A stretch of DNA of 64,000 bases from Scenedesmus sp. PABB004 (GCA_014905635.1 JABVCE010000025.1:62001-126000); one strand, 5' to 3'. Shown: positions 26,912-31,310, counted from the stretch's first letter. The notes: a model not told the origin generated them from the letters alone. A program made the numbers and translations.

Positions 26912-27764
26912 ATGCGGGCGCTCAGCAGCGGCGGCGGCACGGTGCGCGCGGCGCCCGGCGGAGGGCCGGCGGCGCCGGCGTGCCGCGCGCGGCGGCGGCT
27001 CGCGTGCGTCGCGCGGCGCACCAAGAGCGGCGGCGGCGAGCGCGACGCAGCGGCGCGCAAGGCGAGCGCCAACGCCGCGGGCGGGCGCGCCGCGCCGCCG
27101 GCGAGCAGCAAGGCCCCGCCGGGCAAGGCGCCGCAGCCGCAGCGTACGCCGGCGCGGTCGCAGCAGCAGCAGCAGCAGCAGCAGCAGCTGGGCGGTCGGT
27201 CGCAGATGAGCGGGCTGGAGGACTTTGTGCGCCGCACGCCGGGGCTCAACCGCTTCCTCGACGGCACGCTCCTCCTCGGCGACGCCGTGATGGTCCTCGC
27301 GACCGAGGCCTCCAGCGAGCGCCTGCCGATCGAGCAGGCGCGCCGCGCGCGCCGCCCGCGCGGCGCGCCGACGGCGCCCTGCCGCCCGCGCGGCGCGCCG
27401 ACCGCGCCCCGCCGCGCGCGTGCAGGTGCCCGCGCTGGCGACCGTGGCGATCGGCAGCTGGGTAGCGGCCGCCGCGCTGCTCGGGGACTATGCGATGGAG
27501 CCCGACCCGGACTCGAACCCGTTGTCCGACGCTCTCGGGTGGCCCATCTTCCAGGCGGTCGTGACCGCGATGATCACGTGGGCGGCCGCGATGGTGCTCG
27601 CGATCGGCGGCTTCGCGTGGCTGGTGAGCCACCTGGTCGTCGAGCCGGGCGTGGTGATGGAGGTCGAGCGCGACGGCATGCTCAGCCCGCAGCTCGAGGT
27701 CAGCGTCGCGCTGCTCATCACGATGTCGTGCTGGCGCGGCATGGCGGCGCGCATGCGCCTCTGA
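26912..27764 (+). CDS. Probable plastid membrane protein, DUF3054-like
   Basis: Transit-peptide-like N-terminus. LLLGDAVMVLA...SWVAAAALLGDY...TWAAAMVLAIGG...LLITMSCWRG four-helix pattern. One GC-AG intron 27338-27425. Confidence 0.6.
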
Positions 27765-28095
27765 GCGCGCACGCACGCCGCAGCCGCGCGGCGGCGCGCG
27801 GCGGCAGGCCGCAGCCGCGCGGCGGCAGGCCGCAGCCGCGCGGCGGCGCGCGGCGGCAGGAGAGAGAGAGCGCAGCGCTGGCGCGGGGGGCGGCGCGGGC
27901 GGGCGGGCGCAAGGGGGGGGGGGCGGCCGGGGGGTTGCGTGTCGCGCGCGGCGCGCGCTGAGCGCCGCGGAACCTCGTCCAAACCGGGCCGCGTGGTGAG
28001 GCGCTGCTGTGCTGTGTACGTACCAGGCAGGGCGGGCTGGGGGTGCTGGGGCGAGACCGACGGATGTACATGCGTGTAACATGCTGACCGCGCTC

Positions 28096-29130
28096 TCACG
28101 TTGCGCCCGCCTTGGCGCTGCCGCGCTTGGCGGCGCCGCGGCGCGGCTGCGGCGTCCGGAACGCAGCCGCGACGCCCCTCTCCGCGCCGCCCGGCTGCTT
28201 CTGCTTCTTGGCCGTCGCCGGCGGCGTGGCCGCGGCGCCCAGCTGCTTCTGCTTCTTGGCCGTCGCCGGCGGCGTGGCCGCGGCGCCCAGCTGCTTCTGC
28301 TTCTTGGCCGCCGCCGGCGTCTGCTGCTGCGCCGCCGCGTGCGTCGCGGGCTGCTGCTCGGGCGGGGCCTGCTGCGCTGCCGCTGCGGCGCCGGCCTGCT
28401 TGCGGTGGCGCTTGGCGCCGCCGGCCTCGCCCGCCGCCTTGCGCTTGCCTCGTGGCGCGGCGGCGGCCGGCGCCGCCGCCGCCGCGCCGGGCGCCGCGTC
28501 CGCCGCGAGCAGCTGCTGCACGAGCCGCAGCGCCGCGCTGCCCGAGCCCTGCTGGTGGGGCGCGCCGTCGGGCCCGAGCAGGCGCCAGCCCTTCAGAGAG
28601 TTGACCGCTTGCTTCAGCGCAAACGCGCGGCACGCCAGCTCCTGCGCCCACGCCGCGAGCGCCTCGCCGTTGCCGGTGACCCGCGCCGGCGCGCCGTTCA
28701 CGGCGGCGAGGTGCAGGAAGAGCGCGGCCAGCTGCTCCGACCGCGCGTAGTCGTCCGAGCCGACGCAGGCGGGCGTCGCGAGCTCGAGCAGGAGCGCGGG
28801 GCTCGACAGCGCGCGGCAGAGGCCGCACGCCAGGCTGCCGCGCGTCGCGGTCACGGTCCGCGCCGCAAAGTCCAGCCGCGTCGCCACCAGCAGGCCCAGG
28901 CCCTCGCCGGCGCAGGGGCCGGCGCAGAGCGCGCAGCAGCCGCCGGCGGCCGCCGCCGCACGCGCGAGCTGCTGCGCCGCGCGCGGTGCGGCGGCCAGCT
29001 GCGCGCCGACGTCTCCCAGCGCCCGGGGCGCCATGCTGAGCGGCAGGGTCGGCATGGCGGCCGCCAGTTCGTCGGCGTGCGCCTGCAGCGCTGCCGCCGA
29101 CGCTGCCGGCGCGGCCGCTGTCGCCGTCAT
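28096..29130 (-). CDS. Intronless degenerate HNH-like/Zn-binding protein with basic repeat tail
   Basis: PTLPLSMAP...CALC...LDFAARTV...CGLC...HLAAVNG...RAFAL...W pattern. C-terminal TPPATAKKQKQ repeats. Confidence 0.65.
   Translation of the reverse strand: MTATAAAPAASAAALQAHADELAAAMPTLPLSMAPRALGDVGAQLAAAPRAAQQLARAAAAAGGCCALCAGPCAGEGLGLLVATRLDFAARTVTATRGSLACGLCRALSSPALLLELATPACVGSDDYARSEQLAALFLHLAAVNGAPARVTGNGEALAAWAQELACRAFALKQAVNSLKGWRLLGPDGAPHQQGSGSAALRLVQQLLAADAAPGAAAAAPAAAAPRGKRKAAGEAGGAKRHRKQAGAAAAAQQAPPEQQPATHAAAQQQTPAAAKKQKQLGAAATPPATAKKQKQLGAAATPPATAKKQKQPGGAERGVAAAFRTPQPRRGAAKRGSAKAGAT
28194..28320 (-). repeat. 48-bp coding tandem repeat (about 2.5 copies) encoding LGAAATPPATAKKQKQ
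   Basis: ctgcttctgcttcttggccgtcgccggcggcgtggccgcggcgcccag repeated on the + strand. Confidence 0.85.
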
Positions 29131-29361
29131 CGCGGGGCGCGAGTGACAGGCGCGTCGAGGCCGAGTCGTCGTCTCGGGCGCGGGCGGTGTGCGGGAGGCC
29201 GCGGCGCGCGCAGCGAGCAGCGGCGGCAGACGCTCGGGCACGAGCCCGTCGCCACGCGGGCGCGCCCTCACAAGTGCCGGGGCGCGCCCGTGGCGATGTG
29301 CACACGCGTATCTCTCCGTGCCACCCGCGACCGGCGCTGCCGCCGGGCTGCGGGCGCCGCG

Positions 29362-31310
29362 ATGCTGCGCCGCGCGCTCCGCTGCCAGGCAGCCCTGGCC
29401 GCAGCGCACCCGGGCACGGCGGCGTGGCGGCGGCTGCACGGCGCCGGCGCCGGCGCAGCCCCTGAGCAGCCAGGGGGCATCCTGGCGGCGTACGAGCGGT
29501 GCGCGCGGCCCGGCGACGGGCGCACGCGGCCGCCGCTCGCCGCGTGGCGCACGACCCGCCCGCACCGCGCCGTGCCGCCTGCGCAGCCTGCTGGCGGTCG
29601 GCGAGCTCTCCCCCGATGCCGCGCAGCTGGCGGCGGTGCGGGCGCTGCAGCTGCTGCAGCAAGCCCTCGTGCTGCGGGCGCGCGGCGCGGCGGCGCCCGC
29701 CCCGGCGGCAGCGGGCGCCGCCGCGGCCAGCAGCAGCGGCGGCAGCGAGCGCAGCGGCGCCGCGCTCGCCGCCGCCGGCGCGCCGCGCGTGGCGGGCGCG
29801 TACCTGCACGGCCCCGTGGGGTCGGGCAAGACGATGCTGATGGACCTGTTCATCGCCACGCTGCCGGCGCCCGCCGGCGGCGGCGGCGCTCACACGGGCG
29901 GCGGCGGCGCTGACACGGGCGGCGGCGCCGCCGCGCCGCGCCCGCTGCGCGTGCACCGCCTGCACTGCCACGAGTTCATGCTCGCCGCGCACGCGCGCCT
30001 CCACGAGCTGCAGCAGGCGCTGCCGCGCGTCGTCGCGAAGAGCCGCGCGGGCCTGCCCGTCTTCAGGCGCGGCCGCGCAGCTGCATGCTGCGTGCTGCGT
30101 GCTGCGCGGCCGGCGGCGCCCTCAGCGCCGCGCCGCGCCGCGCCGCGCCGTGCCGCGCCGCCACGCGCGGCCCCGCGCCGCGCGCAGGTACGCGCCGCCG
30201 GCCGAGGACCCGGTGCTGGCCGTCGCGCGCGAGGCGGCGGCGCGGTGCGAGGTGCTCGCCCTGGACGAGCTGCACCTCGCCGACGTCGCCGACGCGCTGC
30301 TGCTGTCGCGCCTGCTGTCCGAGCTGCTGGACCGCGGCACCGCGGTGGTGCTCACCAGCAACCGCCCCGCGGCGCACCTCTTCAGCGGCGGCGGCCCGAG
30401 CCGGCGCTACGTCGAGCCGCTGCTGCGCCTCATCGACGGCTCGCTGCTGCAGCTCCGCGTGGCGGGCGGGCGTGACTTTCGGGAGCGCGGCGGCGCGGCG
30501 GCGCCCCGCGGCGGCGACCGCGCGCCGGGCGCCTGGCTGGTGGGGCCGGGCGCGGCGGACGCGCTGGCGCGGCGCTGGCGCGCGCTCGCGGCGGCGCACG
30601 GCGCCGACGGCGACGGCGCGCCCGTGAGCCTGCCGCTGCCGTTTGGCCGCGACTTGCGGGTGCCCCGCGCGCTGCCGCAGCAGCCGGCGGAGGGCGCGCA
30701 GGCGGCGGCGGCGGCGCAGGCCCAGCGCCCGCAGCAGCCGGCGCTGGCGGCCGCGTGGTTCAGCTTCGAGCAGCTCGCGGGCGCCGGCGGCAGCCGCTCG
30801 TCGCTGGAGCAGTCGGGCGCGCTGAGCGCCAACGACTGCCTGGTGCTGGCGGCGCAGGTCGGCGCACTGTTTGTGGACGGCGTGCCGCAGCTCGGCCCCG
30901 CGCAGCGCGACGAGGCGCGGCGCCTGGTCACGCTGCTGGACTGCCTCTACGACGCGCACGCGCTGCGCCCGGGCAGCGTGCGCCTGTGCGTCGCGGGCGC
31001 GGTGCCGCCGGGCGAGGTGTTCCTGCCGCTGCTCGGCGCCGCGGCGGCCGCGGGCGTCAACCCCAACCTCGGCCGCGCGGCGGGCGCGCGGCTCGACGTC
31101 GCGCGGCTGCTGCGCGAGCACGGCCCCGGCGCGCGCGCGGACGGCGGCGGCCGCGACGAGCTCGGCGCCGCGGCGGGCGAGGTCGGCGGCGGCGCGGCGA
31201 GCGGCGGCGGCGGTGGCGGCCGCTCGGCGCTGCTGCCCGAGGAGGTGTTGATGTACCACCGCGCGGCGTCGCGCCTGGCTGAGCTGTGCGAGGTCGAGGA
31301 GTGCGGCTGA
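29362..31310 (+). CDS. AFG1: AFG1/LACE1/ZapE-family AAA+ ATPase, mitochondrial-type presequence
   Basis: Walker A GAYLHGPVGSGKTMLMDLF, HCHEFM, Walker B LALDELHLADVADA, TSNRP, DEARRLVTLLDCLYD and RAASRLAE. Introns 29499-29586, 30067-30187 (GC-AG). Confidence 0.92.

Follow-up and report, generated by a model that had tools for sequence, protein, structure and literature searches.

The window analysed here, a stretch of 64,000 nucleotides from Scenedesmus sp. PABB004 (GCA_014905635.1 JABVCE010000025.1:62001-126000), carries on its minus strand, at 28096..29130, a single-exon gene for a protein of 344 amino acids (aa). Its N-terminal domain very likely shares ancestry with a bacterial and phage family of zinc-finger HNH endonucleases, and lacks the catalytic residues of that family while keeping its four cysteines; a long basic tail follows. 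The gene and its parts, all on the minus strand, are as follows.

28096..29130, minus strand: complete single-exon coding sequence, 344 codons plus a TGA stop at 28096-28098 (translation, codon composition, homologues)
28555..29130, minus strand: N-terminal folded domain, residues 1-192 (AlphaFold2 (AF2) model; hhalign alignment to the bacterial HNH family)
28924..28935, minus strand: first Cys pair, C66-A-L-C69, matching the first bacterial CxxC in the hhalign alignment
28828..28896, minus strand: beta hairpin, residues 79-101 (strands E79-87 and E92-101 in the AF2 model)
28816..28827, minus strand: second Cys pair, C102-G-L-C105, opening a helix (family column counts; alignment)
28693..28713, minus strand: HLAAVNG motif, H140-G146, common to the bacterial family (HLARVNG / HFCxVN)
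28585..28629, minus strand: last long helix and strand, R168-AFALKQAVNSLKG-W182 (helix H155-178 and strand E183-185 in the AF2 model)
28099..28554, minus strand: basic low-complexity tail, residues 193-344 (composition)
28182..28319, minus strand: 48-bp tandem repeat, 2.9 copies with 96% matches, encoding LGAAATPPATAKKQKQ (16-aa unit)
28147..28161, minus strand: F324-R-T-P-Q328, an [F/L/P]xTPQ motif ~20 residues before the C-terminus

Since the whole window is ~79% GC and long open reading frames (ORFs) occur in every frame, including overlapping ORFs of 585, 589 and 610 aa in other frames at this very locus, ORF length is no evidence for a gene, and a chance ORF or a pseudogene decaying in GC-rich DNA had to be considered. 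The ORF at 28096..29130 nonetheless displays a strong codon periodicity, with a GC content of 0.803/0.655/0.948 at the first, second and third codon positions (a frame-specific 0.95 at the third against 0.66 at the second), which is not seen in its in-frame upstream extension to 29853 (0.78/0.80/0.88). The domain is 47% identical to relatives across its entire length with no stop or frameshift, and a profile search returned 86 relatives. The N-termini of homologues align with M1 and the conserved C-terminal FxTPQ motif lies in the same frame, indicating that the whole protein is contained in one exon. Every element that the initial annotation of this locus had read in a single-exon ORF, namely CALC, CGLC, HLAAVNG, RAFAL...W, KRK and the repeats, is found in the 344-aa translation, and KRK (K229-R-K) is joined in the tail by K240-RHRK. 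Judged from its sequence, the ORF is thus a real, functional and intron-free gene, and the probability that it arose by chance or is decaying appears negligible.

The protein belongs to a family of green algae. Its closest named relative, retrieved by a word-index search, is a 400-aa protein of Tetradesmus obliquus (A0A383VA00; E 3e-40), which is 47% identical over the N-terminal 184 residues and has the same plan, a folded N-terminal half followed by a basic tail. Cutting the query to residues 8-192 yielded a second relative (E 3.7e-27), and a three-domain profile searched against 1.84 billion representatives returned 86 proteins at E<=1e-3, 48 of them at E<=1e-10. Organisms were looked up for 30 of the clusters of these 86 proteins, as well as for Tetradesmus, and 11 could be named. 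Ten are chlorophytes (Tetradesmus, Chromochloris, Chlamydomonas reinhardtii, Gonium, Haematococcus, Dunaliella, Chlamydomonas eustigma, Acetabularia, Tetraselmis and Nephroselmis); the eleventh is a Picozoa single-cell assembly that we regard as uncertain. The C. reinhardtii member is Cre12.g540450, and every named member is annotated as hypothetical. For Tetraselmis, Nephroselmis and Acetabularia, members were found in transcriptomes (MMETSP or Trinity), so that the family is transcribed at least in these relatives.

Members have in common a ~190-aa Cys4 domain followed by a basic tail. The features by which they are recognized, two CxxC pairs, HxAxVN and WxQE..RAxxL..GW within the ~190-aa N-terminal domain, are all present in the Scenedesmus protein, and the corresponding columns of the family alignment are well conserved: H140 in 35 of 43 sequences, N145 in 38/42, W161 in 36/40, E164 in 34/40, R168 in 34/42, the alanine of the RAFAL segment in 36/41 and W182 in 36/37. 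For about 31 of the 86 profile matches the start falls within profile positions 114-130, and for about 20 the end falls within 107-131, which suggests that relatives share a conserved intron near codon 125-130 and that their proteins have been broken at this point by gene callers. The Scenedesmus gene, noted from the start as intronless, runs across that point as one continuous exon, with M1 and the C-terminal motif both in frame; the gene of this window is thus free of introns, but the family in general is probably not. A full-text literature search, supplements excluded, returned nothing on this family or on inactive HNH domains in green algae. The family is uncharacterized, spread across chlorophyte classes, and has no Pfam model.

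Outside eukaryotes, a profile of 51 algal sequences matched, in one of five genomes, a Bacillus testis ORF of 219 aa over the zinc-hairpin-zinc core (37.3 bits; E 3.9e-9 per genome). Searched in turn against 401 Bacilli genomes, the B. testis ORF identified six ORFs of 144-160 aa with a complete HNH motif, in the order ELIP..N.R..W, CxxCG, HExWxfD, LCxxCHxxKH, HFxxVN, W..R...W.vD. With a profile of these ORFs, 13 of 301 Actinomycetota genomes gave matches, seven of them at E<=1e-25, and the actinomycetotal examples bear HLARVNGW and EAFQVWAQRSQGPW. The motif order of a prokaryotic or viral HNH family given in the initial annotation is therefore exactly that of a family recovered here from bacterial genomes, and the profiles match: hhalign aligned the algal family with 11 active bacterial sequences at 92.0% probability (E 6.7e-7, 87 columns), the algal family with the Bacillus ORF at 95.2% (E 2.4e-8, 123 columns), and the Bacillus ORF with the active family at 97.3% (E 1.9e-11, 117 columns). 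Both CxxC pairs, the hairpin between them and HxxxVN were aligned in that order, whereas the N-terminal L.ielvP element was not recovered by hhalign. When the columns of the bacterial alignment were shuffled 120 times, scores averaged 12.6 +/- 2.7 with a maximum of 21.2 and a maximum probability of 1.9%, compared with 51.3 for the real alignment; reversal of the bacterial alignment gave 12.9.

With the 51-sequence alignment AF2 returned a model with a mean predicted local distance difference test (pLDDT) score of 92.6 and a predicted template modelling score (pTM) of 0.86; with three sequences the model was unusable (pLDDT 51.7). In the 51-sequence model, there are helices at the N-terminus, a loop holds the first CxxC, the hairpin 79-101 lies between the Cys pairs, a short helix begins at the second CxxC, and a helical bundle from 128 to 178 is accompanied by a final strand. 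Foldseek comparison of this model with the PDB gave no clear match (best E 0.78), and sequence searches of the PDB with the protein and the family profile gave matches limited to the low-complexity tail; in a wide search of the PDB, 7 of 50 rows among the matches listed are HNH nucleases. In BFVD the best match is an unnamed 101-aa protein (E 0.16, probability 0.90), and the tenth a phage HNH endonuclease (template modelling (TM) score 0.63 by target, root-mean-square deviation 3.2 over 80 columns). The nearest clusters of the ESM Atlas are phage and bacterial proteins of 186-207 aa with a feature score of 0.95 and structural TM scores of 0.57-0.64 over 99-145 residues, and all the nearest named ones are HNH proteins. 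The Atlas structural alignments reach back to residue 24, while those of hhalign start at the first CxxC.

The similarity could alternatively be convergent: the algal domain would then be a eukaryotic treble-clef Cys4 zinc finger joined to a helical bundle, and would not descend from a nuclease. Two CxxC pairs are a widespread feature, no Pfam or PDB match is significant, and a number of our results weigh against the proposed kinship. The 344-aa protein has no significant match to a Pfam, NCBIfam or PHROG model, and no family of these collections is common to more than two of the 51 members. A tblastn search of the domain against 50,697 phage records gave no match at E<=10, and of 62 pattern matches obtained on scanning viral contigs with the three-sequence alignment, none was confirmed. 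RecR, an unrelated Cys4 protein picked as a harder control because it was a chance match of the algal profile, reached 56.4% with the algal family in hhalign (E 1.1e-4, 63 columns). Finally, the bacterial relatives were themselves obtained by search, which entails some selection bias. The only Pfam model on the protein at E<=10 is that of a viral glycoprotein, on the low-complexity tail, and no HNH model is among the 25 Pfam families listed for the 51 members. In favour of the kinship, the two best weak PHROG matches are HNH endonuclease families (E 0.015 and 0.016, one member each).

The RecR match is limited to the N-terminal helices and the first CxxC. Generic Cys4 likeness thus accounts for part of the hhalign signal, but does not explain an in-register match that takes in the two Cys pairs and the hairpin as well as HxxxVN and the next Trp. 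This register, hairpin W/D included, extends over 87-123 columns, no shuffled control exceeded 1.9%, features and structure lead independently to the same phage and bacterial clusters in the Atlas, and with the Bacillus ORF as intermediate the three pairwise matches all lie at 92-97%. On balance we consider convergence improbable, and common ancestry of the algal domain with the bacterial and phage zinc-finger HNH family very likely.

We note that the algal profile, when run against 401 Bacillota genomes, returned 12 weak matches, 11 to RecR and one to a 565-aa methyl-accepting-like ORF, all of which were rejected as chance; this run, in which five of seven candidates were scored, missed the true Bacillus match. 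The RecR matches (L119-L130) were oddly consistent, with E values of 4e-4 to 9e-3 per genome and alignments covering the helix-hairpin-helix (HhH) helices and the first CxxC.

In the register set by hhalign, the catalytic His-Glu at the end of the first strand of the bacterial enzymes corresponds to L81-V82 in the Scenedesmus protein, the Trp that follows to T84 (a Trp is retained in 11 of 42 algal sequences), the Asp to D87, the Gln (Gln/Asn) of the second strand to V93, the His of CxxCH to R106 and the His of KH to S110. The replacement of HE and of the His after the second CxxC, already pointed out for this protein, extends to the algal family as a whole, where the catalytic columns hold His in 1/42 sequences, Glu in 0/42 and the two helix His in 0/45 and 0/45. 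With every catalytic position replaced, the His-Me site is not expected to work, and metal-dependent nuclease activity is predicted to be absent. It is conceivable that the protein still cuts by way of other conserved polar residues, D87, H140, N145 and E164, which are conserved in 24-38 of 40-43 sequences and, in the case of H140 and N145, in the active bacterial family as well. In 41/42 to 45/45 sequences, however, hydrophobic residues, Arg or Ser occupy the positions that define the His-Me site, and inactive variants of the same family exist in Bacillaceae too; such residual activity appears highly improbable.

The non-catalytic residues common to the bacterial enzymes stay conserved (H140, N145, W161, E164, R168 and W182), and so do the four cysteines, with C66 present in 44/44 algal sequences, C69 in 40/43, C102 in 45/46 and C105 in 43/46. 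A metagenome subgroup (P0074, P0079 and P0081) that has lost three of the four Cys while keeping the rest of the domain speaks against a structural role of the metal throughout the family, as zinc is evidently not essential to every member.

The tail comprises 152 residues (193-344) with an isoelectric point (pI) of 12.0, 34% Ala, abundant Gln, 25 Lys and Arg and 4 Asp and Glu; Lys and Arg thus make up 16% of it. A basic C-terminus is general in the family, the last 120 residues having a pI>=10 in 32 of 36 members checked. KRK, KRHRK and three KKQK clusters fit the pattern of a monopartite nuclear localization signal (NLS), and the 48-bp repeat carries the KKQK clusters together with two of the four TP sites of the protein. 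The latter had been described as sites of cyclin-dependent kinase (CDK) type. All four exist, yet none has a Lys or Arg at +3 ([ST]Px[KR]), and they are better regarded as minimal proline-directed sites than as full CDK consensus sites. Of the 36 members checked, 16, the closer relatives, have an [F/L/P]xTPQ motif ~20 residues before the C-terminus; its [F/L]xTPQ shape, with an aromatic residue at -2 followed by TP, resembles a Cks1 docking site. Like the tails of linker histone H1, that of the algal protein is rich in Ala, Lys and Pro, disordered, strongly basic, and endowed with TP sites and short repeats. It is unlike H1 in that a Pfam scan of the algal protein reveals no winged-helix globular domain, and in its Gln-rich composition with only 16% Lys and Arg. 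The basic, NLS-like tail is consequently no more than loosely similar to that of histone H1.

These observations are best explained as a whole, and with moderate confidence, by a dead module derived from an HNH nuclease and joined to a basic tail, forming a non-cutting nuclear binder of bacterial or viral origin. Residues 1-192 very probably constitute one folded module, descended from the bacterial and phage zinc-finger HNH endonuclease family, which keeps the four zinc-binding Cys together with the C-terminal helical part specific to that family and lacks the catalytic residues. It would persist as a zinc-stabilized, non-cutting binder of nucleic acids or chromatin. The basic tail of ~150 residues may provide nuclear import and unspecific affinity for DNA, and [F/L]xTPQ, conserved close to the C-terminus, may act as a proline-directed phosphorylation switch. 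Homologues begin at a conserved helix, leaving no room for a transit peptide, which argues against an organellar role.

The active family is scattered in Bacilli and Actinomycetota and, by the labels of the Atlas, also occurs in phages and giant viruses. The ancestor of the algal module may thus have come from a bacterium or a virus before the chlorophyte classes diverged, a direction of transfer suggested by distribution, the named eukaryotic members being chlorophytes. Horizontal acquisition, as originally proposed for this gene, would have been neither recent nor private to Scenedesmus, since the spread of the family across chlorophyte classes makes any transfer ancient.

With the same origin, the protein could instead act on RNA or serve as a protein adaptor, for instance in the nucleolus or in ribosome biogenesis, with the dead HNH domain as an interaction surface. 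The scores obtained for DotN, which lie within the range of a common arrangement, speak against such a role, as does the conservation with bacterial nucleases of H140, N145, W161, R168 and W182, suggestive of a retained substrate-side function, and we regard this alternative as unlikely. Returning to the non-cutting nuclear binder, a more specific version of it, in which a captured HNH domain lost catalysis, was fused to an H1-like tail and became a green alga-specific binder of chromatin or DNA structures switched in the cell cycle by phosphorylation of [F/L]xTPQ, is put forward only tentatively. Inactivated HNH domains are in themselves of a known kind; what is new is the finding of one in a lineage-specific eukaryotic architecture. 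The family, conserved from Nephroselmis to Chlamydomonas, seems to be a clear example of a mobile-element nuclease that became a non-catalytic, probably nuclear protein. The existence of an orthologue in C. reinhardtii makes its function directly testable.

The HNH-like gene has a divergently oriented neighbour, with which it has an intergenic region in common.

29362..31310, plus strand: AFG1-like ATPase gene, in at least two reading frames (PF03969, E 6.7e-10 and 3.1e-28; translation)
29131..29361: divergent intergenic region of 231 bp, common to the HNH-like and AFG1-like genes

The head-to-head arrangement with AFG1 across about 230 bp, part of the original description, is borne out by the PF03969 matches on the plus strand and the 231 bp between the two start codons. 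The AFG1-like gene has a Walker A motif, GPVGSGKT, near 29810 and a likely ATG at 29362. This ATG is out of frame with the Pfam-matched stretch that starts at 29567, which implies an intron or another start. Downstream of the HNH-like gene, an 89-aa hydrophobic ORF (27495-27764, plus strand) coincides with a fall of one codon phase to 48% GC; no Pfam match was found for it, and it probably represents one exon of a gene for a membrane protein. The region 27800-27970, also 3' of the HNH-like gene, holds a cluster of short GC-rich tandem repeats with periods of 21, 16, 12 and 9.

Among known systems, the bacterial and phage HNH family (A4; 145-190 aa) resembles the algal domain in length, in the placement of the two CxxC pairs, in the Trp and Asp positions of the hairpin, in HxxxVN and in C-terminal helices with two Trp. 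Its full motif order is ELIP..N.R..W, CxxCG, HExWxyD, LCxxCHxxKH, HxxxVN, AFxxWxxRSxxxW, and in its bacterial alignment the H of HxxxVN is nearly invariant and the N invariant. Even an active bacterial relative scores only 18.1 bits (E 0.0031) with the Pfam HNH model PF01844, below the cut-off of 21.4. The algal protein differs from this family in the absence of the catalytic His-Glu, of the Gln, and of the His of CxxCH and KH, in an N-terminal ELIP..N.R segment that is not detectably conserved in algae, and in the basic tail, of 60-250 residues, that algal proteins add. The bacterial genes, unlike the algal one, lie in contexts reminiscent of mobile elements, adjoining genes for single-stranded DNA-binding protein (SSB) or DNA methylase. 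Two active members (L134:1429-1983, minus strand, and L164:1216-1857, plus strand) have an N-terminal DUF5710-like segment (E 2.2e-4, below cut-off), and the first of these genes adjoins SSB and a YfbR-like deoxynucleotidase in what looks like the replication module of a mobile element.

Closer to the algal proteins in their loss of catalysis are the B. testis ORF (L118:1237-1896, minus strand) and its orthologue (L161:1492-2154, plus strand), which are 40% identical, both nuclease-dead, and found in one and the same neighbourhood, LexA - cREC_REC (PF20274) - dead HNH - CotD; no Pfam or NCBIfam model matches this variant. The algal profile has its best non-eukaryotic sequence match in this variant, which, like the algal proteins, has lost HE and both helix His (YAYTDW / LFTDWDF; CYSCFC) and retains the Cys pairs and HFxxVN. 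Unlike the algal proteins, it has no basic tail, a different C-terminal extension and a conserved chromosomal neighbourhood. A 237-aa Bacillaceae relative (L162:1453-2163, plus strand) keeps HE and CxxCH and has the same C-terminal extension as the dead variants, indicating that inactivation arose within that bacterial subgroup. The loss of activity in Bacillaceae is probably independent of that in algae, and catalysis has been lost more than once on the HNH scaffold, which appears to be reused repeatedly without cutting. More broadly, the beta-beta-alpha core bracketed by Cys pairs is a feature that the algal domain may have in common with canonical zinc-finger HNH structures, the comparators being T4 endonuclease VII (1e7d), EcoKMcrA (6ghc), Gme HNH (4h9d) and phage GVE2 HNH (5h0o), together with the HNH domains of Cas9/IscB and of human ZRANB3 (5mkw).

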